A DNA stretch of 52,671 nucleotides from a virus (Duplodnaviria; Caudoviricetes), in the IMG/VR virus record IMGVR_UViG_3300015195_000007, positions 1 through 52,671 of that record; one strand, 5' to 3'. Of this stretch, positions 7,599-24,862 are shown piece after piece. The notes beneath the pieces were generated by a model. It had not been told where the DNA came from. It worked only from the letters and a program-made list of their open reading frames with translations, and did not search any database. Numbering within the stretch: the stretch's first letter is position 1; every line of letters starts with the position of its first letter. A program made the translations under genes and the position numbers.

Positions 7599-8202
7599 GC
7601 CTCGTAGCAGGGACGCTACTTGCTTTCATTGTCAGAAGAAGATAAGGTGGAAAGCTCAGACTCTTAGCCAGCAGCAAAAGGAAGAGAACGCTGTCGTCGA
7701 AGAGTTCAACAAAGGCAAGATGTCCTACGATCGAAAGCCTACTCCGCATCGACCTTACTTCACTCCTCGCTGGACGCATGTCCCAGAGTCTGATGGCGAG
7801 GACAAGGCGTACTGCGAGCTGGAGAATCCAGAAGTAGAGAAGCCTCTTTGGAGAAAACCTAGGGCTCAGCCAAATGAGTTCTGCAATGCTCGGAACTACG
7901 GGGATGGTACTGACTGCAATCTCACCGCTAGGCCAAAGGAAGAGTGGAGTATCTACACAACAGTTCCGAAGTGTGGAAGGCATCTCAAAGAAGATATCGA
8001 GCAGTACACTCAGAAGCAAGCTGCTGAAGAGAAGGTCGAACTTGAGGCTTGGGCCAGACAGCATGTCGAGCAGTTAGGCAAAACACTGAAGGAGACGTAT
8101 GGTGTAAACTGGACGTACGAAAGACGGTTTAGCGAGTACACTGGGAAGATAGTAGTTGATCCAGCGGAGATACTGGAGATACTAGAGAAGAGGAGACAGT
8201 GA
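7591..8202 (+). CDS. hypothetical Cys/His-containing protein
   Basis: 203-aa ORF coupled to the helicase start. Confidence 0.6.
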   Translation: MSEPRSRDATCFHCQKKIRWKAQTLSQQQKEENAVVEEFNKGKMSYDRKPTPHRPYFTPRWTHVPESDGEDKAYCELENPEVEKPLWRKPRAQPNEFCNARNYGDGTDCNLTARPKEEWSIYTTVPKCGRHLKEDIEQYTQKQAAEEKVELEAWARQHVEQLGKTLKETYGVNWTYERRFSEYTGKIVVDPAEILEILEKRRQ

Positions 8203-10085
8203 TTGTAACAGCGGAGCTCGATAGTATCTCGCAAGAGAACGAGTTCATGAAAAAGAAAATCCGTGTTTTCTTTCCGTACAATCCGGACTACAACGTCAGG
8301 ATTAAACGCATAGCCGGGGCTAAGTTCACCGGACCTAGCAAACCGCAGGGACCGAGCTGGACCGTTCCGCTTGACGTGGATGCTTGTCACATGCTGAGAA
8401 AAGAGTTCGGAGAAGACCTTCGGATTGAGAGGGGTCTCTCTCAGTGGTACGTCAAGGAGACGAAAGAAACACGAGTTCTGACAACCCTTGCTGCGGCTAC
8501 ATCTGCCGAACTGACCACGCTTCCGATCGTTCTGCCAGAGCTTTTTGACTTCGTCAAGACCCGCCCGTACCAACTGGCTGATATCGCATTTATGGCTCAG
8601 AACCCTAGCCCCAGCAACTTTAATCAGCCAGGACTGGGGAAAACCGTCGAAGTAATCGGTGCTGTCTTTGAAGCCAAGATGGATGAGGGACCGCAGTTGG
8701 TAATGGCTCCAGTATCTAGTCTTGATGTCGTCTGGCAGTATGAGCTAGAACGTTGGCAGCCATACCCTGTACTCGTTGCTACGCAGGATCCTCGTCAACG
8801 TATTCAGTTGCTCGAAGAGGCTGAGGCGATGTATGAAGAGGGACAGGCATTCTGGCTTGTAGTCAATCCAGCGATGGTGCGCTACAAGATTCTCAGGCCG
8901 ACCAAGCGCAATGGGCTCGAGCATCCCATAGCAGTTCCCAACTATCCCGAGCTGTTTGCTATTCAGTGGAAGCACAAGATTGTGGATGAGTTCCATAAGT
9001 GTGGACTCGGCAACACAGCGACACAGACACATCAGGCGATGGTCGATCTTAAGGCTGAGAAAGCCATTGCCATCTCCGGGACTCCAATCGGTGGTAAGGC
9101 GATCAAGCTGTACGGAGTGCTACACTTCGAGAATCCGACTGAGTTCAGCAGCAAGTGGAGATTCGCTGATCAGTGGCTTACGGTGACTGATCGAATGGGG
9201 CGAGACGGTACGCAGTACGGCAAAGCGATTGAAAACATACGACCGGAACGAGAAGAGGCTTTTGCCCAGATGTTGGCCCGCTATGCTATTCGGCGCACAA
9301 AGGCGGAGGTAGCACCGGAGCTACCGCCCAAACAGTTCGTGAACGTTTGGGCGAACTTAACAGATCTGCCAGAGCAGTTTCGTCAATACAAGGAGTTCGA
9401 GAAGCTTGCCGCTGTCAAGATTGCTGACGAGGAGATCTCGGCTACGAGTATCTTGGCTGAGTATACACGTCTGAAGCAGTTCGCAGATGCGGTGCAGGAC
9501 GTGACCCGACGCACTATCAATCATATTGGGCAAGATCCAGAAGATGTGATGGTTCTCAAACCCGTTTTAGGACAATCTGTTAAGCTGCCTCACGTCGAGC
9601 GGTTGCTTAACGAACTTGGCATTGATCCAGAGGAGCCAGCCGGAGACGAGCAGGTCGTCATTTGCAGTCAGTTCAGCAGTGTCGTAGATATGGTGACCAA
9701 CTATCTTCTTCAGAAGAAGTATCCGGCAGCCAGATTCACAGGCGCCACGAAGCCAGAGCAGCGAGCGGAGCTCGTCCGAGCCTTCCAGAACCCGAATGAC
9801 CCGCTGAGGGTACTTGTCATGACGACCACAGCGGGTGGTGTCAGCATCACGCTTGACAACGCTAATACGATGATTGTAATCGATGAGACATGGGTTCCGG
9901 ACGACCAAGAGCAGGTAGCAGACAGATTGCATCGTGCGTCTCGTATTCATCAGGTCACTGTGTATACGATTCGAACAAGGGGAACGATAGAAGAATACGT
10001 CATGGAGACCAATGTGGATAAGCAGCATATCAACGATCTTGTGCTTGACGTCAGGCGTAGGTTGCTAGATGAGGTGGCGGTGTAG
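8199..10085 (+). CDS. SNF2-family helicase/ATPase with N-terminal HARP-like domain
   Basis: PGLGKT, DEFH, SGTP, SQF, AGGVSITL, QVADRLHR, GTIEE; N-terminal FPYNP..IKRI.GA.F....WTVP. Confidence 0.9.
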   Translation: MIVTAELDSISQENEFMKKKIRVFFPYNPDYNVRIKRIAGAKFTGPSKPQGPSWTVPLDVDACHMLRKEFGEDLRIERGLSQWYVKETKETRVLTTLAAATSAELTTLPIVLPELFDFVKTRPYQLADIAFMAQNPSPSNFNQPGLGKTVEVIGAVFEAKMDEGPQLVMAPVSSLDVVWQYELERWQPYPVLVATQDPRQRIQLLEEAEAMYEEGQAFWLVVNPAMVRYKILRPTKRNGLEHPIAVPNYPELFAIQWKHKIVDEFHKCGLGNTATQTHQAMVDLKAEKAIAISGTPIGGKAIKLYGVLHFENPTEFSSKWRFADQWLTVTDRMGRDGTQYGKAIENIRPEREEAFAQMLARYAIRRTKAEVAPELPPKQFVNVWANLTDLPEQFRQYKEFEKLAAVKIADEEISATSILAEYTRLKQFADAVQDVTRRTINHIGQDPEDVMVLKPVLGQSVKLPHVERLLNELGIDPEEPAGDEQVVICSQFSSVVDMVTNYLLQKKYPAARFTGATKPEQRAELVRAFQNPNDPLRVLVMTTTAGGVSITLDNANTMIVIDETWVPDDQEQVADRLHRASRIHQVTVYTIRTRGTIEEYVMETNVDKQHINDLVLDVRRRLLDEVAV

Positions 10086-10171: not shown

Positions 10172-11182
10172 ATGAAGAAAGAGATATTACTTAGGACGAG
10201 CGAGAGAACAAAGTTTAAGGAATGTCGCCAGGCTTGGTTCTGGGCGTACGAGGATAGACTCGTCAAGATTGGACCACCGACTACAGCCCTGAGATTTGGC
10301 GACCTTGTCCACCGTGCGTTGGCTGCGTATTACGTCCCGGGCAAGCGTAGGGGGCCACACCCGGCCCGTACCTATGCCACCCTGTACGACAACCAGCTAC
10401 AAACGGGTATGCCTGAAATGAAAATAAGGAAGGACGAAGACTTTGGGTCTCCATCCTATTTGGACCCTCTTTTGTTTGGTGTTGATATACTTGAGCACTA
10501 TATCGATACTTACGGCAAAGATGCTCGATACAAAATCATCAAACCTGAGCAAGCTTTTCAGTTGGATATCCATCATCCTCGGAATGGACGCTATCTCTTC
10601 ACTTATGTCTCTCAGATGGATGCTGTGGTACAGGATCTTAATACCGGGAAGCTTGGCCTATTTGAGCATAAAACTTCTGCTAGCACTTCTCCCTTCGGAG
10701 CGCCGCTCACACTAGACGAGCAGGCGAACTCGTACTGGACGTTCGGTACGATGTGGCTCCATGCTACAGGGCAGTTGAAGCCGGATCAGGACTTGGACTT
10801 CATGCTCTACAACTTCATTCGCAAAGCGATGCGAGATACTCGCCCTAAGAACTCTGAGGGTCTGCATCTCAACAAGGACGGTAGTGTCAGCAAGAAGCAG
10901 CCAGCGCCGTTCTTTCGGCGGGAGACCGTCATGCGTGGACAGCCAGAACGGGAGGTCGTGTTCCGCAGGACACTGAACGAGTTTCGAGAGATGCAAATGG
11001 TCCGAGAGGGCAAGCTGGCCGTCTATAAGAATCCAGGAAAGCACTGCGGATTCTGTCCATTTCGGGACCCTTGCGAAGTTCACGAAGTAGGGTCAGACTA
11101 TCAGGCGATTCTTGACAATATGTATACTCAGTGGAATCCTTATGCAGAGCATGAAGATAGGGTCGAGGATGACTTGGCGTAG
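10172..11182 (+). CDS. Cas4/RecB-like PD-(D/E)XK exonuclease with 4Fe-4S cysteines
   Basis: S....F..C, G..VH, MDAVV..EHKT, Q...Y, HCGFCPFRDPC. Confidence 0.85.
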   Translation: MKKEILLRTSERTKFKECRQAWFWAYEDRLVKIGPPTTALRFGDLVHRALAAYYVPGKRRGPHPARTYATLYDNQLQTGMPEMKIRKDEDFGSPSYLDPLLFGVDILEHYIDTYGKDARYKIIKPEQAFQLDIHHPRNGRYLFTYVSQMDAVVQDLNTGKLGLFEHKTSASTSPFGAPLTLDEQANSYWTFGTMWLHATGQLKPDQDLDFMLYNFIRKAMRDTRPKNSEGLHLNKDGSVSKKQPAPFFRRETVMRGQPEREVVFRRTLNEFREMQMVREGKLAVYKNPGKHCGFCPFRDPCEVHEVGSDYQAILDNMYTQWNPYAEHEDRVEDDLA

Positions 11183-11579
11183 TTATCGGCGAAAGTTCTA
11201 TGAGGCTAATCCGACCGGGCCTTGGATCTGTTATTATTGTGGTGTCGCCGTCAATGATTTCTCCAAGGTCGTCGTTCATCACAAAGATGAGAGTTGGAGA
11301 AATGAAGACCTTGAGAATCTAGTGTCGATTCATAAGGGGTGCCATACTAAGGTTCATCCAAGGAAATGGTCTGAGACTAGTAGGCGTGAGGTCGGAAATA
11401 GAGCTCGAGGAAGAGTTCTAACCGAGAGGCAAAAGAAAAAAATAAGTGATTCTCATAAGAATAGAAAACCAGTATCTGCAGAGACGAAGAGGAAAATGGT
11501 GGCAGCCCAGACTGCTCGTAGAAAGCGTGAAGCTGCTGGTATAATGATCAAAGGTCGGGCAAATGGAAAGCACGTGTGA
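11169..11579 (+). CDS. HNH homing endonuclease with NUMOD3-like basic C-terminus
   Basis: CYYC...VVHHKDE....EDLENLVSIHKGCHTKVH; SETSR, TERQKKKISDSHK, SAETKRKM repeats. Confidence 0.85.
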   Translation: MTWRSYRRKFYEANPTGPWICYYCGVAVNDFSKVVVHHKDESWRNEDLENLVSIHKGCHTKVHPRKWSETSRREVGNRARGRVLTERQKKKISDSHKNRKPVSAETKRKMVAAQTARRKREAAGIMIKGRANGKHV

Positions 11580-12551: not shown

Positions 12552-13385
12552 ATGGCAAGACCTAAAGCGATAACACCCGTCAAGCAAGAGGAATACTTCG
12601 TTAATATCTGTCTTCATGGTGAGCCTGGAGTCGGAAAGTCTGTCCTAGCTGCCAGCACACCGAAGACACTTCTCTTGCTGAACGATGCAGACGAGAGTAG
12701 TGCTGCGGCTGAGCTAGGCAGCACTGCTCACAAGTGGGTCATCAATACCATCGAGGATATGGAGCAAGCCTATGAATACGTGAGACACGAAGGGTACAAG
12801 GAATACGAATGGGTGTGGATTGACAACCTGACTCTGCTGCAAGAGCAGTTCATGGATCAGGTGATGGAGCAGCTTGTCGCTGATAAACCGCACCGCAATC
12901 GTTGGGTTCCTGATATGCACGAGTATCTTGTTGTGCAGAATCAGGTCGGAACGTATATCCGATACTTCCGAGCTATACCTATTCACTTCGGATGGACAGC
13001 TCACTGTATGCGGACAGAAGATGAGGACGGACACGTTCTGTATACACCTATGATTCAGGGTGGGCAGGGCGCTTTGAGTCAGAAGTTGTGCGGATATATG
13101 AATGTAGTCGGTCATCTGTCGGCTATTCGTAATAAGGAAGGAGATACTGAGAGGAAACTGACGGTAACAAAGAGAGGAAAGTTCTATGCAAAATCTCGCT
13201 GGAGTGGATTACAGGGCACACTCACAAATACAGATATGCCTGCCGTAATGAAGCGGATTCAAAGTAAGTTCCCTAACCTGGGCAACCCGCCGCCAGTTGG
13301 TGTGAGGCGGGCGGCACCGGCTAGGGTAACTCCAGCTACCAACCCCAAGACGACAATAACTCACAACAGAAGGAGAGTAAGTTAG
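12552..13385 (+). CDS. Sak4-like / AAA_24 ATPase (phage recombination)
   Basis: GEPGVGKS Walker A, WIDNLT, TAH, AKSR; next to the SSB-like gene. Confidence 0.8.
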   Translation: MARPKAITPVKQEEYFVNICLHGEPGVGKSVLAASTPKTLLLLNDADESSAAAELGSTAHKWVINTIEDMEQAYEYVRHEGYKEYEWVWIDNLTLLQEQFMDQVMEQLVADKPHRNRWVPDMHEYLVVQNQVGTYIRYFRAIPIHFGWTAHCMRTEDEDGHVLYTPMIQGGQGALSQKLCGYMNVVGHLSAIRNKEGDTERKLTVTKRGKFYAKSRWSGLQGTLTNTDMPAVMKRIQSKFPNLGNPPPVGVRRAAPARVTPATNPKTTITHNRRRVS

Positions 13386-14210
13386 ATGGGAATCGTGAAG
13401 TTCGACGTCTCTGGTTCAGATCCGGACCGGGCAACTCAGAGTTTTGAGCCTCCGAAGCCGGGAGTATACAGGGCTAAGGTGGCTGAGCTCAACAGCGGCT
13501 TCGCCAAGAGCAGGGAGACCGGAAAGCCGGATCCTAAGCGTCCCCGGCTGGAGGTCGTCTATCATCTTCTCGACGACCCCTATAAGAATGCTCCGCTGTG
13601 GGACTACCTCAGCTTCTCCGAAGAGGCCCAGTGGAAGATGGATCAGTTCCTTCAGGCCGTTGGAATCGCCAGCAAGAAGAAGCGCAAGGGCAGCTTCGAC
13701 TCAGATAGTCTCATCGGCAAGATCGTCAAGGTGCGAGTCCGAGGCGGCAAGAACCTCAGCGATGAGTATCGGGCTGAGGTCGGCGGCGTCATGGCTGCGC
13801 CAGACGAGGACGAGGACTACGGTGATTCCGGTGAAGGCGACGAGGGCGAAGGTGATATCGATGGTGATAAGGGTGAGGGTGAAGATGAAGTCCCTGCGGA
13901 TGAGCCTGAGGAAGATCCTTACGAATCCATGACCGCCGTCCAGCTACGGACAGAGCTCAAGGCTCGTGAGCTTGACCCCAAGGGAACTTCCTCAGCTATG
14001 AGGGAGCGTCTGCGGGAGAACGATGCCGAGCAGGCTGAGCCTCCGGATGACGAGGCGCAGGCCGAGGACGAAGCACCGGATGACGGCTACGACGACCTCA
14101 CGCTGGACGAGCTCAAGCAGGAGGTTCAGGACAGGGAGCTCACCGTCAAGCCGATTACCAAGGTTAAGCTGATCGCTGCGCTGCGGGAGAATGACTTGGA
14201 ACCGTTCTAG
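13386..14210 (+). CDS. DUF669-like ssDNA-binding protein with acidic linker and two SAP/HeH-like motifs
   Basis: FEPPKPGVY.A.V, LIGKIVKVRV; acidic tract; YESMTAVQLRTELKAREL and YDDLTLDELKQEVQDREL; C-terminal EPF. Confidence 0.7.
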   Translation: MGIVKFDVSGSDPDRATQSFEPPKPGVYRAKVAELNSGFAKSRETGKPDPKRPRLEVVYHLLDDPYKNAPLWDYLSFSEEAQWKMDQFLQAVGIASKKKRKGSFDSDSLIGKIVKVRVRGGKNLSDEYRAEVGGVMAAPDEDEDYGDSGEGDEGEGDIDGDKGEGEDEVPADEPEEDPYESMTAVQLRTELKARELDPKGTSSAMRERLRENDAEQAEPPDDEAQAEDEAPDDGYDDLTLDELKQEVQDRELTVKPITKVKLIAALRENDLEPF

Positions 14211-14636: not shown

Positions 14637-17435
14637 ATGCCATGGAAAACAAAACCCCAGGAGATTCTCGCCCCATTTTTAGAAGGTGGTGGCCCGGACA
14701 TCAAGGGCGAGTGGAATATGCACTGCATAGTTCACGCCGACGAGAAACGCAGTGCAAGCATCAACTTCGATCTCGACAAGTGGTACTGCCATGCCTGTCT
14801 TCAGGGTGGTACAGTCTCTGAACTGTTACGCATTCTTGACCAAAAGGACCCAGATTTTGTCCCGACAGCCGCTACTAACGGCAATGGTACAGCGCCGGGG
14901 ACTACTGTCCTGGCGCCTGTTGCCCTGCCTAGCGGCGGTACCGTAGCAGGGTGGCACGCCGCCCTAGTAGCCAACAGTCAAGCTCTCGGTGAGTTTCGGC
15001 AAGCCAGAGGGTTGAGCTTAGAAACCATCATCCATAACAAGATAGGAATGAGGCATCAATATGGAAGATTCATCTACACCCTACCCATCTATGGCGATCA
15101 AGAAGTCCTTCAAAATGTTCGGTTTTACGATCTCCGCCCTGGGTCGGAAAGACGGAAAATCTGGGGGATTCCTGGACATAACACTCCGCTTCTCTTTCCC
15201 ATTGAGCAGCTCTCTCAGGATAAGCTCGTCATCTGCGAAGGAGAGTGGGACGCACTCATAGCCATACAGAACGGCATACCTGCGATAACTCGTACAGGTG
15301 CCGCCAAGGTCTGGAAGAAAGAGTGGAATCAACTCTTCGTAGATAAGACGATCTACATCTGTCATGATATGGATCGTGATGGACAGATTGCTAATCGTAG
15401 AGTCATGCGTGAGTTACGCAAGGTAGCGTCGTCCATAGGCATCGTGAAGTTACCCTTCAGAGTCGAACTTAAACATGGGCGAGATATCACCGATTACTTC
15501 CATGTAGAAGGGCATGAGCCCGAAGAGTTTCTAGATCTAATCCGAGCTGTTAAGGTAGCCGAAGAGTCAGAGTATCTTGAAGTGGAGCTGGCCGACACTA
15601 ACAGCATACAGAAACACGGATCCAAGACGCTGAGCACAGTGGTCAACTTTCAAAGCGCACAGAAACCGCCCTACTCTGCGCCACGAATGGTGGAGATGAG
15701 ATGCGGCCAGGATGCCGGGAAGATCTGCTCTACCTGCCCGATGAACAGCCACAGCGGCAGCATGGACTTGAACTTTAAGGCGGACGATGCTACCCTGCTA
15801 GAGATGACACATGTAGATAAGATGAAGGTTGTAACGAATCTTCGTCAGGTGATAGGAATCCCGAAGTGCGCTTTGATAGATATAGATGTCAAAGAGTTCT
15901 GGGATCTCAGTCTCGTCACTGTGCGCAGCAGTGTAGATCATGCTCATGTAGATACGACCAGGCTTGAAACGAAACAGGTAACGATGGTGGGGTCGTACAT
16001 CGATAGCCCGAACACTGTGTTTCAGATGGTAGGTAATCTGTATCCGCATCCAAAGACGCAGGCAACTACGTTTCAGGTCAGTCGTACAATCCCTGCTCAG
16101 ACAAGTATCGACAGCTTTGTTCTAACACCAGAGATCAAACAAGGCTTGGAGATATTTCAAGGCAACGCTCATCCACTAGAGAAAGCGTACGACATTGCCG
16201 AAGATCTCAGTAGACATATCACGCATATTTACGGACGCTCAGATATGCACGTCCTTATGGACTTGGTATATCACAGCGTACTATCCTTTTCGTTCGCCGG
16301 AACTTTGGAGCCTCGGGGCTGGCTTGACGCCCTCATTATCGGTGACACAAGGACAGGAAAATCTGAGGCTGCCAGTTCTCTCGTTATGCACTATCAGGCT
16401 GGGGAGATGGTTAACTGTGAAGGAGCAACCTTCGCAGGGATTCTGGGTGGAGTGCAGCAGGTCGTCGGAAATACCTGGGAGATTTCTTGGGGGGTCATTC
16501 CACAAAACGACAGGCGTATGGTCACGCTTGATGAGGCGAGTAGTCTTTCTACAGACCAGTTCGCCCAGCTTTCCGGGGTACGTTCAAGTGGTGAGGCGCA
16601 AATCACCAAAATAAGAAGCGATAAGGTCCAGGCCCGCACTCGTCTTCTCTGGCTGGCTAACCCCCGACCACAGAAGTACACAAGTAAGAAGATGGAAGAC
16701 TTCACTTATGGGGTCGATGCAGTTCGTCCGCTCATTGAGAACTCTGAGGACATCGCTCGATTTGACATTGCCATGGCAGTACGCAGCGATGAGGTAGACA
16801 CGTCTGAGATTAACAAGATACATAGCGTGTCTGACCCGAAGTACTCGGCGGCGTTGTGTCAGGCTCTGGTATTGTGGGCGTGGAGTCGGAGGGCTGACCA
16901 GATCGTGTGGACCAAGGGTGCTGTAGCAGCTACCTACCGGGCAGCGATGAAGCTTGGAGAGATATATATCGAGGATCCTCCACTGATTCAGTCTGCCAAC
17001 GTGCGAATGAAGATTGCTCGACTGGCTACTGCTCTGGCTGCTCGAACCTTTAGCACAGATGATAGTTGTGAGAAGGTTTTGGTCAAGGCTCAGCATGTCG
17101 CTGGGGCAGTTCAGTTCATCGATAACTTGTACGGGAATAGTAGCTTTGGATACAAGATCCTCAGTGTACTGCATCGTAAGAGAGTGTCGATTGCTGCTCA
17201 ATCAATCGACGAGGCCAAGGAGTTTATTCATCGTACACAAGGACTTGCAGATCTTTTATTCGAGAGTGGAAACTCGTTTCGTGGCAATGATATTCAGGAG
17301 ACCCTGGGGGTTTCTCGCGATGTTGCAGACGGTATTGTGAAACAGTTAGCAGAGTATAGAATGATAAAGCGTGGTGGTCCGCAAAACATCATTCAGCCAT
17401 TGTTACGAGACATCGTGAGGGAGCTGATAGAATGA
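14637..17435 (+). CDS. primase-helicase fusion: CHC2 zinc finger + TOPRIM + MCM-family AAA+ helicase + winged helix
   Basis: CIVH...CHAC; ICEGEWD, HDMDRDG, RDITDY; C..C..C zinc site; IIGDTRTGKS, LDEAS, LANP, IARFD, C-terminal wHTH. Confidence 0.85.
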   Translation: MPWKTKPQEILAPFLEGGGPDIKGEWNMHCIVHADEKRSASINFDLDKWYCHACLQGGTVSELLRILDQKDPDFVPTAATNGNGTAPGTTVLAPVALPSGGTVAGWHAALVANSQALGEFRQARGLSLETIIHNKIGMRHQYGRFIYTLPIYGDQEVLQNVRFYDLRPGSERRKIWGIPGHNTPLLFPIEQLSQDKLVICEGEWDALIAIQNGIPAITRTGAAKVWKKEWNQLFVDKTIYICHDMDRDGQIANRRVMRELRKVASSIGIVKLPFRVELKHGRDITDYFHVEGHEPEEFLDLIRAVKVAEESEYLEVELADTNSIQKHGSKTLSTVVNFQSAQKPPYSAPRMVEMRCGQDAGKICSTCPMNSHSGSMDLNFKADDATLLEMTHVDKMKVVTNLRQVIGIPKCALIDIDVKEFWDLSLVTVRSSVDHAHVDTTRLETKQVTMVGSYIDSPNTVFQMVGNLYPHPKTQATTFQVSRTIPAQTSIDSFVLTPEIKQGLEIFQGNAHPLEKAYDIAEDLSRHITHIYGRSDMHVLMDLVYHSVLSFSFAGTLEPRGWLDALIIGDTRTGKSEAASSLVMHYQAGEMVNCEGATFAGILGGVQQVVGNTWEISWGVIPQNDRRMVTLDEASSLSTDQFAQLSGVRSSGEAQITKIRSDKVQARTRLLWLANPRPQKYTSKKMEDFTYGVDAVRPLIENSEDIARFDIAMAVRSDEVDTSEINKIHSVSDPKYSAALCQALVLWAWSRRADQIVWTKGAVAATYRAAMKLGEIYIEDPPLIQSANVRMKIARLATALAARTFSTDDSCEKVLVKAQHVAGAVQFIDNLYGNSSFGYKILSVLHRKRVSIAAQSIDEAKEFIHRTQGLADLLFESGNSFRGNDIQETLGVSRDVADGIVKQLAEYRMIKRGGPQNIIQPLLRDIVRELIE

Positions 17436-17674
17436 GCAATGCTCGAAGAGAAATAGGGGATTGTGCTTTCCCGAGTTGTGATTGTCCTGGAGAAGAGCCA
17501 ATCTGTCTAGACTACGAGCAAACAGCAGACGAGGCGATCTACCGACGCATTCTTGCTGGCGAAGAGGTGTGTCCTATTCATTGCTTCCCTTTGCCGTGCA
17601 AGGAGATCTGCATCGTACACCAAGAGCATGAGCCATGTTCTATCTGTCGCTCTTACATCGCAGCCGGACTTTAG
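17432..17674 (+). CDS. Cys/His-rich hypothetical protein
   Basis: Repeated CxxH/PCxxC motifs. Confidence 0.5.
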   Translation: MSNARREIGDCAFPSCDCPGEEPICLDYEQTADEAIYRRILAGEEVCPIHCFPLPCKEICIVHQEHEPCSICRSYIAAGL

Positions 17675-17679
17675 AGGAG

Positions 17680-18483
17680 GTGAACGATATCAAAGTAATC
17701 GTTCTGGGTTGCGGTCCTGCCGGGATGTTAACGGCGGCAGCCGTCAGGTCTGTGGGTTACCAGCCTGTCATACTCAGTTTGAGGAAGCCGAGCCCTATCG
17801 GGGGTGCTCAGTATTTGCACCGTTCGATTCCAGGAGTAACTCGTGAGGAGCCTGATGGAGACATAGAGTTTATCAAGCAAGGCACTGGTCGAGGGTATGC
17901 AATGAAGGTCTATGATCGTTCCAATGCGTCTACCTCTTGGGACGAGTTTGAAGAAGGTCCGCATCCTTGTTGGAATCTTCGGCAGGCTTACAATCATTTG
18001 TGGGAGATGCTGGGGTGGCGCATTGTAGATATGAAGATTACCCCCATTATTCTCGCTAGGATCTTGGATAGCGGAGAGTATGCGGCAGTGATGTCAACGC
18101 TGCCACTGAGGGATTTTTGTATGAATCCCAAACACAAGTTCACAATGAAGGAGGTATTTATCAGTCTCGACGCTGATGATTTGATTCCGATTGATCAACG
18201 ACCTCGCTGGGCTCCGCCTCAAGAGAAGAATATGATTGTGTGGAACGGAGAGCCGGAGACTTTCTGGTACAGGCAATCAAGCATCTATGGATTCCCAGGT
18301 ACAGAGTGGCCGGGGCACCCGCATGACAGAAAGGTAATACGAATCACCAAGCCGTTGTGGACGAACTGTACCTGCTGGCCTGGACTGATCAAACTTGGAC
18401 GCTACGGGAGATGGAAGAAAGGGGAACTCGTGCATCACGCATACGAGGGAGCTATCGACGCACTGGTGGGCAGCCATGTATAG
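17680..18483 (+). CDS. FAD-dependent oxidoreductase
   Basis: VIVLGCGPAG dinucleotide-binding motif, GAQYLH, STLP, LGRYGRW; GTG start after GAGGAG. Confidence 0.75.
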   Translation: MNDIKVIVLGCGPAGMLTAAAVRSVGYQPVILSLRKPSPIGGAQYLHRSIPGVTREEPDGDIEFIKQGTGRGYAMKVYDRSNASTSWDEFEEGPHPCWNLRQAYNHLWEMLGWRIVDMKITPIILARILDSGEYAAVMSTLPLRDFCMNPKHKFTMKEVFISLDADDLIPIDQRPRWAPPQEKNMIVWNGEPETFWYRQSSIYGFPGTEWPGHPHDRKVIRITKPLWTNCTCWPGLIKLGRYGRWKKGELVHHAYEGAIDALVGSHV

Positions 18484-18850
18484 AAGGCTACGAATCACCA
18501 ACGAAACAGGTCTCAGCAACGATACGAGGATCATCGATCAAGACTCAGGAGCAGATCTATCAACCAGAGTAACGTCAGTTGAGATTACGGCTAAGGTCGA
18601 TGAGATAGCAAGTGCTAAGATTACCTACATCACTCCACAGATAGATATCGTAGCTTGGGCTCATACGCCAGAGGAAGAGAAGCCTTTATTAGGATTGGCA
18701 ACTACTAGACAACTCCTGGAAGAAGTAGCGGTTCGAATGGAGGTTTCGCAGAACAGCAACAGGGGGCGTGAGCTAGGGACTTTGTGTAGGCTTGCTATGG
18801 ACAAGCTAAGTGGCGGAGTTCTTGATTATAGGACGGTGAATAGTGACTGA
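18476..18850 (+). CDS. hypothetical protein
   Basis: Internal ATG overlapping the previous gene; 124 aa. Confidence 0.55.
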   Translation: MYRRLRITNETGLSNDTRIIDQDSGADLSTRVTSVEITAKVDEIASAKITYITPQIDIVAWAHTPEEEKPLLGLATTRQLLEEVAVRMEVSQNSNRGRELGTLCRLAMDKLSGGVLDYRTVNSD

Positions 18851-19259
18851 TACTTCTGTGGACTGCGGTAACTGTATCGCAGCCTGCTGTCGGGCTGGCT
18901 CAGGAATCGTGATGACTGAGCTTGAGCATGAGCAGCATCGTCGTTTCATGGAAACTAAGATAGTGCTCAAACCAAAGAACTACGAGCAGGCGGCTCCTAT
19001 CAAGATGGAAGTTCTCGACAAGAACGGAAAGCGTAGTCCTCGAGAGGCCGTTATCTCGGTGCGTAAGCATTATGGCTGGTACGTTCTCCGGTCTGATTGC
19101 GGACATCTAGAGAACTACAACTGTGGCGACTACGACCATAGGCCGCAGGCGTGCAAAGAATACGAGATGGGCGGAGAAGCTTGCCTCAATGCGAGAGCGA
19201 TGGCTGGGCTAGACGGTCACGAGCGTCAGATACCGATGGGAGCGGGCGATGTTGTGTAG
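18843..19259 (+). CDS. YkgJ/CxxCxxCC-family metal-cluster protein
   Basis: CGNCIAACCR...CGHL...CGDYDHRPQACKEY. Confidence 0.8.
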   Translation: MTDTSVDCGNCIAACCRAGSGIVMTELEHEQHRRFMETKIVLKPKNYEQAAPIKMEVLDKNGKRSPREAVISVRKHYGWYVLRSDCGHLENYNCGDYDHRPQACKEYEMGGEACLNARAMAGLDGHERQIPMGAGDVV

Positions 19260-19893
19260 TCACTGCGGGGACAAGGTACTTCCGGTCGTAGTGTTCGACC
19301 TAGACGGGACTCTGGCTGAGTATCACAAGGCGTTCACTTCTTTCTGTGGAAGATACTTTGATCGAGACATGAGGTCTGATTGGGATGGCTCAGGTAACTT
19401 CGAGGACTACCTTGGGCTGACCAGACCGGAGTACCGTGAAGCCAAGCTGGCTTATCGTCAAGGCGGCAACAAGCGATGGCTGGCTCACTACGAGGATCCG
19501 TGGACACTATTCAAGACGATACAAGAGCAGTTCACCTGTGAGATCTGGATCGCCACGACGAGACCGTGGCAGCGACTTGACAATATCGACCCAGACACAA
19601 CGGAGTGGATTCGTCGTCGTCACCTCAACGTTCATGGGTTGCTGTATGGAGAAGACAAGTACGAGAGACTTGTCGGAGTAGTTGATCCACGCAGGATTGT
19701 GGCCTGCGTAGAGGATCTTATCTCTCAGTTTCTTATGGCGGAGCGCCTTAAGCTTCCGGTCTTCCAGGTCGAGAGGCCGCATAACCGGGCGCCTGGCTTG
19801 AGGGGTTTTCCACGAGGTAACATGGCAGCGGCAATGTACTGGATACTCGCTGGACTTGAGCGATGGACTAAGGAGAATAATAATGGAGATTAG
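19249..19893 (+). CDS. HAD-superfamily 5'(3')-deoxyribonucleotidase-like phosphatase
   Basis: FDLDGTL, ATTRP, K, VEDL motifs I-IV. Confidence 0.75.
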   Translation: MLCSHCGDKVLPVVVFDLDGTLAEYHKAFTSFCGRYFDRDMRSDWDGSGNFEDYLGLTRPEYREAKLAYRQGGNKRWLAHYEDPWTLFKTIQEQFTCEIWIATTRPWQRLDNIDPDTTEWIRRRHLNVHGLLYGEDKYERLVGVVDPRRIVACVEDLISQFLMAERLKLPVFQVERPHNRAPGLRGFPRGNMAAAMYWILAGLERWTKENNNGD

Positions 19894-20170
19894 GACCGAA
19901 CAGGTAGCACGATTCCTGGACCAGCATCGAACCGATGCTACCGAAACAAACATCGAGCAGATGATGATGCTTCTGCGAGCTTTTGCCATTTTTGAAGGAC
20001 GCAACGAGAAGTACGGAGATCTGTGGAAGGAGTTCTCTCCAGAAGCCAATCTCGTTCACATCAAGTCCAAGCTGATGCGCTTGGAGCGGCTAAGCGGTGC
20101 CGAGGCGATGGACGATGGCTTGGACTTGATCAACTACACGGTCTTCTATCTCCGTAGATTCAATGTTTGA
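19883..20170 (+). CDS. DUF1599 / nucleotide-modification-associated all-alpha NTP pyrophosphatase-like protein
   Basis: RNEKYGDLW...IKSKLMR...DDGLDLINY. Confidence 0.65.
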   Translation: MEIRTEQVARFLDQHRTDATETNIEQMMMLLRAFAIFEGRNEKYGDLWKEFSPEANLVHIKSKLMRLERLSGAEAMDDGLDLINYTVFYLRRFNV

Positions 20171-20606
20171 CAACTTCGAGCTAGACATGGCGATTCGAGA
20201 GCAAGAATGCAAAGAGCACTTGCCCAGAAGATTCCTCAAGGAAGTCGCCGATCCGTTTTTCGGGGGAGGTCTTCCTTCGGCTGTTATGGCTGTACTAACG
20301 GTCAGAATCAAAATGTTGGGTCCGCTGTCTTGCATTGTAGATACGCTGGAGCATCATTTGTTCTGGGTGCAAACTAGACAGCGACACTGGATTACTCTTC
20401 AGTTCTGTAGTGCAATGCTCATGTCGGCGGCACTCGGAGTACAGCCAACCTGGAAGACAGCTTTGGAAGATGCAAATCCAGCACAAGACGCCATGACTCT
20501 TGTAGACATCTACTGGCCTGACAGCGTTAATACAGAAACTCCGATGGATGCAATGGCTTCTACTTTAGCCCTGAGAATGTGCGTAAACGAACTGAGGAAA
20601 ACGTGA
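20163..20606 (+). CDS. hypothetical protein
   Basis: 147-aa ORF in the gene chain. Confidence 0.5.
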   Translation: MFDNFELDMAIREQECKEHLPRRFLKEVADPFFGGGLPSAVMAVLTVRIKMLGPLSCIVDTLEHHLFWVQTRQRHWITLQFCSAMLMSAALGVQPTWKTALEDANPAQDAMTLVDIYWPDSVNTETPMDAMASTLALRMCVNELRKT

Positions 20607-20607
20607 G

Positions 20608-20778
20608 ATGATGTATCAAGGAGAACGCAATCCTGACGACATTCTTGGTATTGGGAAAAAGGTAGGAAGGAGATGTCTTTCTCCTCATCCCGAGAACAAG
20701 GAGGAATGCAAGAGGCTACCGCACTCAGAAGAGACGAAACATTGGGCGATCTACGCAGGAAGAGGAATCAGATGGTAA
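20608..20778 (+). CDS. small hypothetical protein (C..C..H..H)
   Basis: Hand-translated 56 aa filling the gap before dnaE. Confidence 0.4.
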   Translation: MMYQGERNPDDILGIGKKVGRRCLSPHPENKEECKRLPHSEETKHWAIYAGRGIRW

Positions 20779-23700
20779 GTGTTATGGAGTGTTGTGACTC
20801 GTAGATATGTGAGCCTTCACCAACACTCTACATTCTCGTACCAAGATGGGTATGGACTGCCTAGTGTTCATGTGACCAGAGCTGCCGAGCTTGATATGTC
20901 TGCGTTGGCCATGACCGATCACGGCAATGTCAGTTCTCATACTCAACTCGAGATAGCTGCCACCAAGCAAGGCGTCAAACCCATTTTTGGCTGTGAGTTG
21001 TATTGTGGGAATGGAAAGACACAACGAAAGAATCACCTCACCGTACTAGCGGAGGATCAGAGTGGATATAAAAATCTCTTGCGAGTCGTCACGGCAGGGT
21101 GGTCCAACTTCTACTACGAGCCCACGGTGGACGGTGATCTTCTCAGCCAATATAAGAAAGGACTGGTTGTTCTCAGCGGTTGTACGGGGTCGCTTCTCGT
21201 TACTTCGCTGGTCGGGGGCAAAAATGTCGCAACCGAAGATGCAAGTTTCCATCGGGGACTTGGTGTGGCTCAACGGTTCCACCGGGCACTCGGCGATGCT
21301 TTTTATTTGGAAGTGCAGACTTTCCCTGAGCTGGAAATCACAAGAACAGTCAATCCGCTCCTCGAGAGAATATCTCGAGAGCTACATATCCCACTCGTAG
21401 CAACGGGAGACGTTCACTATACTCTTCCGTCAGAGAGTGAGATGCAACAGATTCTTCACAACGTAAGGGGTGGTAACCGTCAAACTCTCGAAGAACAAGC
21501 CCAAGCATGGGGATATGATGTCCCTCTCTCACCCTGCGCAAATGATCTTACTGTTTATCGTCGCCTGCGAGGGACTGGCCTTAGTCATCTGGCTGCTCGT
21601 CAGGCAATAACGAACTCAGCTGAGATCGCTGAGCGGTGTACTGTCGTTCTTCCGAAGCTGGAGAAGTTACGTTTCCCATTACCGGAGGGATTCCGTGATA
21701 CAAAAGAGCTATGGCGAAGCTGGATCAAACAGGGTTGGTCGTACCGACGGTGCGGCAGCCTTGCCCCAAATGAGCGTGAAAGATATCGCAAGCAGCTTCT
21801 TTACGAGATGGACATCGTCGAGAAGAAAGACTTCATCGACTACTTCCTCCTCGTCAGCGATATCGTCAAGTTTGCCAAGGACTCGGGAATTCCGGTTGGC
21901 CCGGCTCGGGGTAGTGCGGCTGCATCTATCGTCTGCTGGCTCCTACGAATCACAGAAGTCAATCCTATGGTTTTCCCGAGTCTCGTATTCGAAAGGTTCA
22001 TCGACCTTACTAGGACCGACCTGCCCGACATTGACCTTGACTTCGACTCAGAGCGGCGTTACGAGATCGAGGACTATGCAGTGGCAAAGTATGGGCGCGA
22101 ATGTGTCGGCAAAATCGGTACGTTTACTTACTACAAATCCAAGAACAGTTTGGACGACGTCGCTCGTGTGTTCAGGATTCCCAGGTATAAAGTGGAGATT
22201 ATCAAGGATCTCCTTATTGAGCGCTCTAGCGGAGATCTGCGTGCCAGCGCAACGATTGAAGATACCGCTGAGCAGTTCGAGCAGGCGAAGGAAGTATTCG
22301 ATGAGTTCCCTGATCTACGCAAGGCTATGCTCTTGGAGGGCAACATCAAGGCGATGGGTATACACGCTGCCGGGTTGGTGGTCGCTCCTGGACCGATCAC
22401 TGACGTGTGTGCCGTCTATAGCAGATTGGATTCTAAAAAGGTACGACAAGAAGCTATCAGCCTAGACAAGTATGACGCCGAGCGTCAGGGAATCTTGAAG
22501 ATAGATATCCTTGGGCTCAGCACAATGACAATGATCGCTGAAGCCTTGCGAATGCTTGGCATGAAACTGGAGGAACTGTATGCCATTCCCCTTGAAGATC
22601 CAAAAATCATCAAAGCCTTTCAGGATAACGATATTGTCGGGATCTTCCAGTTTGACGGTAGAGCTATGCGTTCCGTCAATGCTGAGCTACGCCCTGACAA
22701 CTTCAAAGAGATATGCGACATCAACGCTCTTGCTAGACCGGGACCTCTCCACAGTAATGCTACAGGCGATTACATTGAGATCAAACGAGGTCGTAAGGAA
22801 CCGGAAATGCTCCATCCGCTTTACGACGCGATCGCTAAAGACACCTACTACCAGATCGTTTACCAAGAACAGATTCTCCGAGTTGTCCGTGAAGTTGGAG
22901 GATTTGACTGGACGGCAGCGGCGTACATTCGAAAGATCATCTCGAAGAAGCTGGGAGAACAAGAGTTCAACCGGCAATGGGAAGCTTTTTGGCAAGGAGC
23001 GAAGGCTAACGGTCTTGACGAGACAGTCGCCAAGCGAATATGGGATACGTGTATTACGGCGGGTGTATACGCATTCAACGCTGCCCATTCAGTAAGTTAT
23101 GGAATGCTGGCGGTATGGTGCATGTGGATCAAGGTGTATCATCCACAGGTGTTCTATGTAGCGTGTCTCCAGAAATACAGCCAAGACAGGCAACTAGAGT
23201 TCCTACGGGACGCCATGCGCCACGGCATCGAGGCATTGCCACCGGAACCGTTTCAGAGTTTTGGGTCGTGGTTCGCCAATGGAGAGAAGATTCAAGCTGG
23301 ATTGGTGCAAGTGTCTGGCATTGGCGAGAAGACGGCAGCGGCTATGCTGGCCTATAGGCAGGCACACCCGGACGTGGTTTTACAGAAAGGATGGCAAGCA
23401 TATAGCAATGTGAAAGGAATAGGACCCAAAACGATAGCGAAAGTAGAGGAGTTCTGTGCTCAAGAAGATCCGTTTGAGATACATCGCTTGCATAGACTGC
23501 TTGACGCTGCTCGTGGATACGTCCGAACGAGGAGAGACCTTCCTAACCCGACGCATTCCAGTCTTCAAGTTCCTTATAGTCGAGGCTCTGATGTCGAAGT
23601 GGTTTGGATCGGTATACTCACCAGTCGCAACTTGCGAGATCTGTTTGAAGCCCATTACTCCAGAACAGGAGTGGTACTTGACCCTGCTGACGTTAAAGAT

Positions 23701-23916
23701 CCGGAACTACGTGAATGGGTCATCGCCTATGGAGAAGACGAAGACGAAGCTATCGTTGTTACTTGGAACAGATGGATCTACCAAAAGTGGAAAAGACTCA
23801 TCTGGGACATCTCCTTGGGTGAAGACGTCGTTCTGGTCCGAGGGGTCAAAAGAGGCTTCCAATCTAGACGAGCCATTTACGTGAAAGAGAGCTGGATACT
23901 ATCACCTTCGACATAG
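20779..23916 (+). CDS. dnaE: DNA polymerase III alpha subunit (phage DnaE)
   Basis: PHP motifs HQHS..S..DG, TDHG, GCE, TGDVHY; GPARGSAA; PDIDLDF; KIDILGL; YAFNAAHS. Confidence 0.95.
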   Translation: MLWSVVTRRYVSLHQHSTFSYQDGYGLPSVHVTRAAELDMSALAMTDHGNVSSHTQLEIAATKQGVKPIFGCELYCGNGKTQRKNHLTVLAEDQSGYKNLLRVVTAGWSNFYYEPTVDGDLLSQYKKGLVVLSGCTGSLLVTSLVGGKNVATEDASFHRGLGVAQRFHRALGDAFYLEVQTFPELEITRTVNPLLERISRELHIPLVATGDVHYTLPSESEMQQILHNVRGGNRQTLEEQAQAWGYDVPLSPCANDLTVYRRLRGTGLSHLAARQAITNSAEIAERCTVVLPKLEKLRFPLPEGFRDTKELWRSWIKQGWSYRRCGSLAPNERERYRKQLLYEMDIVEKKDFIDYFLLVSDIVKFAKDSGIPVGPARGSAAASIVCWLLRITEVNPMVFPSLVFERFIDLTRTDLPDIDLDFDSERRYEIEDYAVAKYGRECVGKIGTFTYYKSKNSLDDVARVFRIPRYKVEIIKDLLIERSSGDLRASATIEDTAEQFEQAKEVFDEFPDLRKAMLLEGNIKAMGIHAAGLVVAPGPITDVCAVYSRLDSKKVRQEAISLDKYDAERQGILKIDILGLSTMTMIAEALRMLGMKLEELYAIPLEDPKIIKAFQDNDIVGIFQFDGRAMRSVNAELRPDNFKEICDINALARPGPLHSNATGDYIEIKRGRKEPEMLHPLYDAIAKDTYYQIVYQEQILRVVREVGGFDWTAAAYIRKIISKKLGEQEFNRQWEAFWQGAKANGLDETVAKRIWDTCITAGVYAFNAAHSVSYGMLAVWCMWIKVYHPQVFYVACLQKYSQDRQLEFLRDAMRHGIEALPPEPFQSFGSWFANGEKIQAGLVQVSGIGEKTAAAMLAYRQAHPDVVLQKGWQAYSNVKGIGPKTIAKVEEFCAQEDPFEIHRLHRLLDAARGYVRTRRDLPNPTHSSLQVPYSRGSDVEVVWIGILTSRNLRDLFEAHYSRTGVVLDPADVKDPELREWVIAYGEDEDEAIVVTWNRWIYQKWKRLIWDISLGEDVVLVRGVKRGFQSRRAIYVKESWILSPST

Positions 23917-23980: not shown

Positions 23981-24862
23981 ATGGGAGATCTAGAGAAGTT
24001 TGCGGATGCCTCAATGTTTCATGCGGCCCCAATGAAGGAAGGGGTCAGCGAGGGACCACAGGTTTTTCTTCTGTGGATGACACCAGACCCGCTCGGAGCT
24101 ATTGCGGCTGCCTGCAGAATGTATGAGGGAAAGCCAACCTACAGCCTGGCGAGTATTACTGATCAAGAGCGGTGGTACTACGCTGAGCAAGTCCAGAAGA
24201 CGCATCTCCAGGCGCCGCTTGAGTTCGTTAAGTTCCATTTTTTCATCGAGGGTATTGACCGAGCGATGACGCATCAGATCGTTCGGCAGCGCACAGCGGT
24301 CTTCGCCCAAGAATCCCTGAGATTCGCCGTCAAAGAAAACATGGCGCAAGAGGCAATCGTACCACCTAGCATCCTGACCGCCAGCCAGGACATTAAGGAT
24401 CATTATGACACACTTCTTGTGCAGATTCAAGAAAAGTACAACTACCTCATAGCCAACGGCATCCCGGCGGAAGATGCTCGTGCGATACTGCCGCATTGCG
24501 TGAGCACTCGGCTGCACTACTGCACTGACCTCCGCAACCTGAAGGAGCACAGCGGAAATCGCCTGTGTACTCAGGCTCAGTTCGCATGGCGAGCACTGTT
24601 CAGCAAAATCGTCGGTAGTATCAAGGGATACAACAAGGGCGGTGGTGATCTGGTTAGCCTCAATCTGTTCAAGCCAGCGTGCTACCAGCAGGGGAAGTGC
24701 CCCTTCACCGCTGATTTTGACCGGGGGTGTACTATACGGGAGAGGGTGCAACTCTTCTCCAAGAGGGGAATACCTAGCCAAGCTTGGGGGATAGGGGCGC
24801 CTGACATTTCGTCCATTTTGCCCCAGGAGTGGATGTATGACCCTCAAGCCGGATGGCTCTGA
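23981..24862 (+). CDS. thyX: flavin-dependent thymidylate synthase-like protein (divergent)
   Basis: RxR-X7-S motif RQRTAVFAQES, EDARAILP, R.C..AQ. Confidence 0.8.
   Translation: MGDLEKFADASMFHAAPMKEGVSEGPQVFLLWMTPDPLGAIAAACRMYEGKPTYSLASITDQERWYYAEQVQKTHLQAPLEFVKFHFFIEGIDRAMTHQIVRQRTAVFAQESLRFAVKENMAQEAIVPPSILTASQDIKDHYDTLLVQIQEKYNYLIANGIPAEDARAILPHCVSTRLHYCTDLRNLKEHSGNRLCTQAQFAWRALFSKIVGSIKGYNKGGGDLVSLNLFKPACYQQGKCPFTADFDRGCTIRERVQLFSKRGIPSQAWGIGAPDISSILPQEWMYDPQAGWL

Follow-up and report, generated by a model that had tools for sequence, protein, structure and literature searches.

Does a phage carry, in one chain, a bacterial primase and an MCM, and could such a protein drive its replication fork? 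MCMs are the replicative motors of archaea and eukaryotes, and it was only recently that their coupling to priming was observed, in large replisomes of many subunits. The question is raised by an open reading frame (ORF) at 14637..17435 (+ strand, 932 amino acids, ATG start) of the viral record IMGVR_UViG_3300015195_000007. The stretch of DNA that we analyzed, referred to here as the window, is this whole IMG/VR record of 52,671 bases, which is listed as linear and has an estimated completeness of about 87%. An earlier note on the same DNA had described the ORF as carrying a CHC2 zinc finger and TOPRIM motifs followed by MCM motifs, and we located every motif that it quoted in the translation: C30-x2-H33-x17-C51-x2-C54, EGEWD (201-205), DMD (244-246), IGDTRTGKS (568-576), LDE (631-633), LANP (673-676) and ARFD (707-710). 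Judged from the translated ORF, such a set of motifs is well beyond chance. Our analysis confirmed that the ORF encodes a CHC2 zinc-ribbon/TOPRIM (DnaG-type) primase joined to a genuine MCM. We consider it probable that the fusion is the replicative primase-helicase of the phage, a hexamer that moves 3’ to 5’, with the primase on the N-tier face of the ring and the phage DnaE extending the primers.

Domain architecture of the fusion protein

We aligned 48 homologues of the fusion protein and used the alignment both for conservation columns and as a family profile. Residues C30, H33, C51, E203, D205, D244, D246, D283, C356, C364, C367 and C411 were invariant (48/48), as were G569, D570, K575, D632, E633, K658, N675, R708, R790 and K792. 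Searched against the PDB, the profile yielded 31 matches with E <= 0.01, nine of them DnaG or T7 gp4 primases and 22 archaeal or eukaryotic MCMs, with none (0/31) outside these two classes; the primases were matched by the N-terminal part of the profile and the MCMs by the C-terminal part. With PHROGs, the N-terminal 300 residues matched primase families and residues 310-911 matched phrog_18685, which is listed as ‘unknown function’. An AlphaFold model built on the same alignment had a mean predicted local distance difference test score (pLDDT) of 88.4, the only low-confidence stretches being residues 1-4 and a linker at 76-92. The nearest cultured relatives are 31-37% identical to the fusion protein.

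The N-terminal half begins with a CHC2 zinc ribbon of the DnaG type (residues 26-69, 14712..14843, + strand), recognized with the family profile and with the Pfam family Zn_ribbon_DnaG, whose cut-off of 24.9 bits was exceeded in four relatives (29.1-43.5 bits). Its ligands have the exact DnaG spacing, C-x2-H-x17-C-x2-C. The ribbon is followed by the linker at 76-92, where pLDDT falls below 50, and by the primase catalytic (RNA polymerase) domain of the TOPRIM fold (residues ~100-305, 14934..15551, + strand). This domain matched Toprim_2 with 26.9 bits against a cut-off of 22.1 (residues 198-273) and the NCBIfam dnaG domain with E 6.6e-09 (residues 193-304). The best primase match of the family profile was Aquifex DnaG (2au3, E 2.5e-12), across the zinc domain; the T7 gp4 primase 1nui was matched with E 1.3e-05, along with 6n7i, 1q57, E. 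coli DnaG 1dd9 and other bacterial DnaG proteins. The dnaG equivalog model TIGR01391 gave 35.1 bits, far from its cut-off of 283.6, and no DnaB-binding domain was found in the fusion by the Pfam search. The primase part is therefore a DnaG-type module akin to that of T7 gp4 and not an orthologue of cellular dnaG.

The C-terminal half contains an MCM AAA+ core at residues 498-735 (16128..16841, + strand), assigned from an alignment to human MCM2, the model and the invariant columns. Its elements are Walker A (569-576), a helix-2-insert hairpin (604-618), Walker B (D632/E633), a pre-sensor-1 hairpin (653-665, with K658), sensor 1 (N675) and the arginine finger (R708). The Pfam MCM family PF00493 was matched at residues 514-724 with 32.8 bits against a cut-off of 23.3 (E 4.9e-08), and all eight phmmer matches to PDB chains with E < 0.01 were MCM2. 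In the alignment to human MCM2, GDPGTAKS stands opposite GDTRTGKS at Walker A, IDEFDK opposite LDEASS at Walker B, AANP opposite LANP at sensor 1 and SRFD opposite ARFD at the arginine finger, and the helix-2-insert and pre-sensor-1 segments are covered as well; in the model, the two hairpins occupy the intervals from Walker A to Walker B and from Walker B to sensor 1, where they are expected in an MCM. A Foldseek search with the full model returned only MCM chains among the matches listed (best E 4.1e-22), and in a VIA structural search 50 of 50 rows were MCM. The best VIA match, SsoMCM 6mii_E, superposed model residues 312-846 on chain residues 103-607 (463 residues aligned, Z 29.4, root mean square deviation (rmsd) 6.1), while structures of the AAA+ part only aligned from about residue 495 with Z 26.6-27.3 and an rmsd of about 3. 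Identity to the MCM structures is only ~13-16%. The structural alignments to MCM chains reach about residue 846 and take in the alpha-helical AAA+ lid (16842..17186, + strand), within which R790 is, by its position, a candidate sensor 2.

Between the primase and the AAA+ core lies an MCM N-terminal domain with an OB fold and a four-cysteine zinc module (residues 306-497, 15552..16127, + strand). The zinc site had been called MCM-like beforehand, and this description was borne out when we folded residues 306-500 alone (pLDDT 91.5) and searched the result, without Foldseek, against 48,161 PDB representatives (VIA wide). Ranks 1-14 were all MCM N-domains (Z 9.4-11.4, 131-158 residues aligned), including Mcm7 of CMG, MthMCM 1ltl (Z 11.4, 143 aligned, rmsd 4.0), MCM8/9 and the SsoMCM N-domain; generic OB folds (RPA, the anticodon domains of Asp/Asn-tRNA synthetases, PriB) ranked next, with Z of at most 9.1 and mostly 84-130 residues aligned. 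Foldseek on the N-domain model likewise had only MCM chains among the matches listed (E ~1e-05). With a lead of about two Z units over other OB folds, the model-based evidence for the MCM type is solid, though short of overwhelming. The helical subdomain A of MCM N-domains was not found: the alignments start at about residue 100 of SsoMCM, and upstream of model residue 306 there is the primase instead, which joins the MCM at the exact place of subdomain A. This difference concerns the architecture, not the helicase core.

Residues 851-932 at the C-terminus (17187..17432, + strand) form a putative winged-helix domain, assigned from the secondary structure of the model and from an alignment with the Bacillus protein BcMCM, which extends to residue 994 of the latter. 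A winged helix had been claimed at this end. The order helix-helix-helix-strand-strand is indeed present in the model (helices 870-877, 883-890 and 894-906; strands 910-913 and 916-919), and on this predicted structure the domain stays putative.

BcMCM is the closest characterized relative of the fusion. It corresponds to BC1863, an ‘MCM domain family protein’ of 1028 amino acids from the Bacillus cereus prophage phBC6A51, which we identified as the published protein because the length, the prophage origin and the mutated residues agree. BLASTP aligned residues 306-910 of the window protein with 374-994 of BcMCM (28% identity over 638 columns, E 2e-67), and the two share the whole MCM body, from the OB/zinc region through the AAA+ core and lid to the C-terminal region. 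Their N-termini showed no significant similarity by BLASTP. In Pfam searches, PF01896, the archaeo-eukaryotic primase (AEP) family, was present in BcMCM (66.4 bits) and in vB_BboS-125 and absent from the window protein; BcMCM has an archaeo-eukaryotic primase-polymerase at its N-terminus, whereas the window protein has a zinc ribbon and TOPRIM domain. The window fusion is the MCM body of BcMCM with the primase class exchanged.

This relative has been studied biochemically. BcMCM is reported to unwind DNA 3’ to 5’, to form hexamers with nucleotide and DNA, and to have an ATPase that is stimulated by single-stranded DNA; K653A abolished ATPase and helicase activity, and D711A and R782A lowered the ATPase (PMC3273815, PMC2715239). 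These three residues align with K575, D632 and R708 of the window protein. The earlier note had assigned the helicase a polarity opposite to that of the usual partners of TOPRIM primases, and by analogy the homology to a 3’ to 5’ helicase at E 2e-67 supports that assignment. The papers on BcMCM describe the typical MCM N-domain as missing (PMC3273815, PMC2715239). In our alignment, BcMCM residues ~374-570 (L084:7849-10935) correspond to window residues 306-497, with cysteines likewise present in BcMCM where the zinc module aligns. Judged from this alignment, and contrary to the published description, the BcMCM clade would keep a true MCM N-domain.

Polymerase partner, distribution and gene neighborhood

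A DnaE-type DNA polymerase III alpha subunit of 1045 amino acids (GTG start) is encoded downstream of the fusion at 20779..23916 (+ strand). Pfam recognized the PHP domain (E 1.6e-32), the DNA_pol3_alpha core (E 6.8e-67), the finger domain (E 1.4e-40) and the HhH domain, and the superfamily model TIGR00594 scored 619.6 bits against a cut-off of 434.35. The gene had been described as a complete DnaE; it is a single ORF with all of these domains, and the word ‘complete’ has to be qualified, as the match to bacterial DnaE models runs no further than position 849 of the 1146 in the profile, and PRK05673, the equivalog, reached 632 against a cut-off of 1002. Profile models detected no OB or tau-binding C-terminus in the phage DnaE, and residues 863-1045 are a C-terminal region of its own that is conserved among the relatives. 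A search of the contig for a phage sliding clamp gene (dnaN, TIGR00663) gave nothing at E <= 1, a result that, at a completeness of ~87%, does not show the gene to be absent. With no dnaN found and a DnaE match that ends at 849/1146, coupling of the polymerase to a clamp loader through tau seems unlikely.

Just past the HhH domain, DnaE has an [E/D]-D-P-F-G motif at residues 896-900 (D897 in 56/56, P898 in 53/56 and F899 in 52/56), at the site of the internal clamp-binding motif of E. coli DnaE. We considered QEDPF at 895-899 as a classical clamp-binding motif and did not accept it; Q895 was present in only 6/56 and the sequence is not the canonical QL[SD]LF, so that it stays a candidate. DnaE is annotated as two ORFs in Microbacterium phage Kate (L001 19562-22913) and in Arthrobacter phage Wollypog (L089 12448-16324), with an HNH endonuclease gene between the two ORFs in Wollypog, while the window DnaE is a single intact ORF.

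Fusions of this kind are widespread in phages, and relatives are encoded on 284 stretches of IMG/VR. We counted neighboring genes in the best 80 of the 284, which are the closest relatives, and the counts are valid for this clade only. The proposed pairing with DnaE holds in this close clade: where the sequence extends at least 7 kb downstream, DnaE was found there on the same strand in 53/53 loci, and among the 27 loci with a shorter flank it was found in 10. On the upstream side, SNF2 was present in 52/53 loci (at least 7 kb upstream), a Cas4-like gene in 57/59 (at least 5 kb), a Sak4-like gene in 72/74 (at least 2.5 kb) and DUF669 in 39/78 (at least 1.5 kb). The DNA polymerase I (Pol I) of phage BSTP12, used as a query, matched in 0/80 of these close loci.

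The family proteins sit in GenBank under generic names. The MCM half, used as a query, matched 53 phage records (Microbacterium 36, Bacillus 10, Arthrobacter 2, unclassified 2, Paenibacillus 2 and Weizmannia 1), which are labeled ‘DNA primase/helicase’ and include the phBC6A51 protein. A count of 98 phage records, which falls to 53 with the MCM half as query, overstates the family, and we did not retain that figure; in 42 Streptomyces and other records among the 98, the match appears to be confined to the primase part. A search of 1.84 billion cluster representatives with the MCM half gave 1,951 matching proteins at E <= 0.001, of which 1,675 reached E <= 1e-10 and 1,133 reached E <= 1e-30. 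Among the best 150 of the 1,951, a DnaG-type N-terminus was present in 129/129 proteins of at least 840 amino acids, and an AEP domain was found in 0/150. Eighteen of the remaining 21, which are shorter than 840 amino acids, had no DnaG-type N-terminus; the matches of the short proteins begin at their first residues, suggesting that these representatives are cut off at contig ends. Two proteins, P0253 (1341 amino acids) and P0259 (1349 amino acids), are ~400 residues longer than the rest and have the MCM half matched in two separate stretches; an intein or some other insertion within the helicase could account for the extra length.

We compared primase and polymerase classes in nine proteins, the window protein and eight from cultured or annotated phages. 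The N-terminus was DnaG-type in seven (window, Kate, Wollypog, BSTP12, Youna2, API480, in which only the zinc ribbon was detected, and MW202657) and AEP-type in the other two (BcMCM and vB_BboS-125). DnaE is the partner in the window, Kate and Wollypog, and Pol I in BSTP12, phBC6A51, vB_BboS-125, Youna2, API480 and MW202657. We rejected the idea that DnaE is an obligatory partner, as Pol I adjoins the fusion in these six more distant relatives, which belong to phages of Firmicutes. A maximum-likelihood tree built from 23 MCM halves placed the proteins of the window, Kate and Wollypog in one clade with 13 IMG/VR proteins (support 98/99) and the two AEP proteins in another (100/100). One IMG/VR sequence (L071) fell outside the clade of the window, and no DnaE match was found within its 5.2 kb of downstream sequence. 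From these sequence comparisons, we claim that primase and polymerase swaps occurred; the backbone of the tree is without resolution and the root is a midpoint root only, with API480 on a very long branch, so how many swaps there were, and in which direction, is no part of the claim. The Bacillus and Weizmannia relatives have queuosine/7-deazaguanine genes (QueC, 6-carboxytetrahydropterin synthase, GTP cyclohydrolase I and a radical SAM protein) between the fusion and Pol I (L002 15006-18655; L086 10136-13299), which suggests modified DNA in these phages.

The window virus, a tailed phage, has a long tape-measure gene. The + strand carries replication, recombination and nucleotide-metabolism genes up to ~26.3 kb, beyond which tail, head, portal and terminase genes lie on the - strand. 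The conserved module upstream of the fusion starts with an SNF2-family helicase (8199..10085, + strand; Pfam SNF2-rel_dom and Helicase_C), and continues with a Cas4/RecB-like PD-(D/E)XK exonuclease (10172..11182, + strand; phrog_1218, E 1.3e-66; PF12705), a Sak4-like/AAA_24 single-strand annealing ATPase (12552..13385, + strand; phrog_124, E 1.8e-41; PF13479) and a protein with DUF669 and SAP domains (13386..14210, + strand; PF05037, PF02037), possibly a partner that binds single-stranded DNA. A ThyX thymidylate synthase (23981..24862, + strand; PF02511, E 8.1e-31) closes the replication and nucleotide block and was likewise found in phages Kate and Wollypog.

Several other features of the window were recorded. 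In place of the queuosine/7-deazaguanine genes of the Bacillus and Weizmannia relatives, the window has genes for an oxidoreductase-like protein, a CxxCxxCC protein, ThyX and an NT5C-like nucleotidase. An HNH endonuclease ORF with a NUMOD3 motif (11112-11579, + strand) overlaps the 3’ end of the Cas4-like nuclease gene and is probably a free-standing homing endonuclease inserted into the replication module. GC skew flips sign, with a cumulative maximum near 24-26 kb, at the junction of the + replication and - structural blocks (about 24-27 kb), a switch that fits two arms transcribed convergently. The early region encodes a 393-amino-acid protein that strongly matches a TylF (macrocin O-methyltransferase) domain (3613-4794, + strand, E 8.9e-73). 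The structural arm has very large ORFs at 49655-52597 (- strand, 980 amino acids) and 39583-43182 (- strand, 1199 amino acids), with no Pfam family for either; the former had no PHROG match and the latter only a weak local match to phrog_37388 (unknown function). No tRNA genes were found in the contig.

Proposed mechanism and rival explanations

Our proposal for the replicative primase-helicase builds on what the computation shows: which domains are present, that their catalytic residues are conserved, that the protein is homologous to BcMCM, and that the recombination module and DnaE are kept in synteny with it. The DnaG-type primase would stand in for subdomain A of an otherwise complete MCM. 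The hexamer would encircle the leading-strand template and, like BcMCM and the cellular MCMs, travel 3’ to 5’ with the N-tier first, the orientation of travel established in work on CMG. The six tethered primase domains would be located on the face of the N-tier, next to the zinc modules and at the point where the lagging-strand template, excluded from the ring, would emerge; there they would make RNA primers on that strand in addition to the first leading-strand primers at the origin. As the primase is attached where helical subdomain A would be, priming of the lagging strand is expected at the front of the ring. Such a position would match that of Pol alpha-primase on CMG and differ from that in the DnaB-DnaG and T7 gp4 systems, where the primase acts on the strand encircled by the ring. 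The flexible linker between zinc ribbon and catalytic domain would permit action in trans between neighboring subunits, as in T7 gp4. The phage DnaE would extend the primers with a recruited host beta clamp or with no clamp, given the lack of a detectable tau-binding or OB C-terminus and of a clamp gene in the contig, and the C-terminal winged helix may recognize the origin.

A number of points weigh against this proposal. The zinc ribbon of the window protein itself scored 13 bits with Zn_ribbon_DnaG, below the cut-off, and the fourth zinc ligand, C54, is kept in only 34/48 homologues. Subdomain A is missing, and a large share of the binding energy within MCM hexamers is said to come from the MCM N-domain (PMC2715239). 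BcMCM is reported as a monomer in solution; its primase activity went undetected in the first study (PMC2715239), and a later study detected both primase and polymerase activity (PMC3273815). The only DnaG-MCM contact that has been tested, in Sulfolobus, was described as weak and inhibitory to the helicase (PMC4227792). Polarity, hexamer formation and priming all rest on a relative that is only 28% identical. The Sak4, Cas4 and SNF2 neighbors would also fit recombination-dependent replication, in which less lagging-strand priming is needed, and a clamp or loader gene could sit in the part of the genome missing from the contig.

The TOPRIM domain might not prime at all. It could be nuclease-type, degenerate, or a DNA-binding or loading module on an MCM initiator-helicase, the primers being supplied by the host’s DnaG or by recombination intermediates that the Sak4/Cas4/SNF2 module makes. 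In favor of this, relatives are called ‘ribonuclease M5’ in some database sources, and the low dnaG equivalog score and the sub-threshold zinc ribbon point the same way, as do the negative result of the first BcMCM study and the tight linkage to the recombination module. We nevertheless regard this explanation as unlikely, given that a CHC2 ribbon of exact spacing with a flexible linker and TOPRIM domain is the architecture of a primase and not of a nuclease, that the profile matches DnaG proteins of Aquifex, E. coli and other bacteria as well as T7 gp4, that the acidic metal ligands are present in 48/48 homologues, and that the N-terminus was kept in all 129 full-length proteins among the best 150. 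The same retention of the primase argues against a role at initiation only, whereby the fusion would lay down the first primers at an origin recognized by the winged helix and the host primosome would prime the lagging strand. Fusion at the N-tier would also suit origin melting and first priming; yet host DnaG is recruited via DnaB, and no dnaB-like gene turned up among the annotated genes of the contig. Another branch of the family carries an AEP replacement, suggesting that a helicase-borne primase is always required. We judge an initiation-only primase very unlikely.

The identity of the ATPase half could also be questioned, as P4 gp-alpha and other phage proteins combine a DnaG-type primase, an SF3 helicase and a winged helix and are superficially alike (PMC4889955); the earlier note had itself named an SF3/D5 or other non-MCM AAA+ identity as the outcome that would overturn it. 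SF3, D5, VirE, DUF927 and DUF3987 were all absent from the Pfam (E <= 1), NCBIfam (E <= 0.01) and PDB profile (E <= 0.01) searches, and we rejected these identities. The structural matches were all MCM, including those of the OB/zinc N-domain, a domain with which SF3 helicases are not reported in PMC4889955, and the MCM-specific helix-2 insert and pre-sensor-1 hairpin are present. Sequence, profile and fold thus all favor an MCM, and a P4-alpha-like, DUF3987 or other non-MCM AAA+ helicase is extremely unlikely. A wider proposal, which we put forward only tentatively, is that the fusion and its relatives form a chimeric minimal replisome around a homohexameric MCM, with an exchangeable primase (TOPRIM or AEP) and polymerase (DnaE or Pol I) and, in the TOPRIM form, a bacterial primase that primes the excluded lagging strand from a eukaryote-like N-tier position.

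Comparison with known systems

The fusion belongs to a large family that is already in the databases, and a primase-MCM fusion has been published in the AEP form as BcMCM. Our finding is a refinement, a variant of a studied phage primase-MCM protein, and not a new class or a wholly new machine. A full-text literature search found no explicit account of a TOPRIM primase joined to a PF00493-type MCM with a retained N-domain, although the supplements of PMC4889955 may list some. In annotation, the label ‘DnaG-type primase / MCM helicase’ could take the place of the generic ‘DNA primase/helicase’, ‘DNA primase small subunit’ and, for PHROG 18685, ‘unknown function’.

A homohexameric MCM from one gene, with a well-understood bacterial primase on its N-tier and a single-subunit DnaE, would be a very small system, and one in which to study how the strand that a 3’ to 5’ ring helicase excludes is primed. 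The relatives with the other primase class would allow a test of whether the class matters to the MCM, and the idea is testable in culturable relatives such as the Microbacterium Krampusvirus phages, Arthrobacter phage Wollypog and the Bacillus BSTP and BSP phages. If true, the chimeric replisome would be a convergent, covalent counterpart to the docking of Pol alpha-primase on CMG. It would also show that the chemistry of the primase and the polarity of the helicase are mechanistically independent of each other.

BcMCM resembles the fusion in being a single-chain primase-helicase within a phage replication module; its gene adjoins Pol I, while the window fusion has DnaE. T7 gp4 shares the primase module, a zinc ribbon, flexible linker and TOPRIM domain placed N-terminal to a hexameric helicase. 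Its helicase is an SF4 motor of the RecA fold that runs 5’ to 3’ along the lagging-strand template, whereas the fusion has an MCM, so the expected fork geometry is reversed. Phage P4 gp-alpha, with an N-terminal DnaG-type primase, an AAA+ SF3 helicase and a C-terminal origin-binding winged helix (PMC4889955), is a precedent for a TOPRIM primase on a helicase other than DnaB. The P4 helicase is of the D5 group of SF3 and its description there includes no OB/zinc N-tier; the helicase of the fusion is MCM/SF6, with no SF3 signal in the Pfam and PDB profile searches.

DUF3987 (SF6) phage helicases occur fused to or beside AEP or DnaG primases and have a C-terminal winged helix, and a global survey describes SF6 helicases as having no preference for a primase type (PMC4889955). 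DUF3987 helicases, such as that of Mycobacterium phage Corndog, and Cch/Cch2 of SCCmec are, like the fusion, MCM-related and carried by mobile elements of bacteria, Cch2 being a 3’ to 5’ helicase. DUF3987 and Cch proteins are described as distant from MCM, whereas the fusion matches PF00493 itself above the cut-off, with no DUF3987 match at E <= 1. The MCM-family helicases of bacteria have been described as highly divergent and as known only in phages (PMC5862659). The earlier note proposed a mechanistically unusual fork, with a bacterial primase tethered to a helicase of opposite polarity; BcMCM, P4 gp-alpha and the DUF3987/SF6 helicases with DnaG or AEP primases (PMC4889955) make it less unprecedented than the note suggested.

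Among cellular systems, Sulfolobus offers the same pairing of a TOPRIM primase with an MCM, in non-covalent form, and archaeal DnaG is reported to serve mainly the exosome (PMC4227792). SsoMCM, MthMCM and the Mcm2-7 of CMG have a fold in common with the fusion from the OB/zinc N-domain through the AAA+ lid (Z 29.4), and the Walker A and B motifs, sensor 1, arginine finger, helix-2 insert and pre-sensor-1 hairpin of archaeal and eukaryotic MCMs are also present in the fusion. The fusion differs from CMG and archaeal MCM in its bacterial host and C-family polymerase. In CMG with Pol alpha-primase, the primase is located at the N-tier near the zinc modules, and the primase of the fusion would be placed alike; in the fusion, however, the primase is covalently attached, belongs to the bacterial TOPRIM class and not to AEP, and replaces subdomain A.

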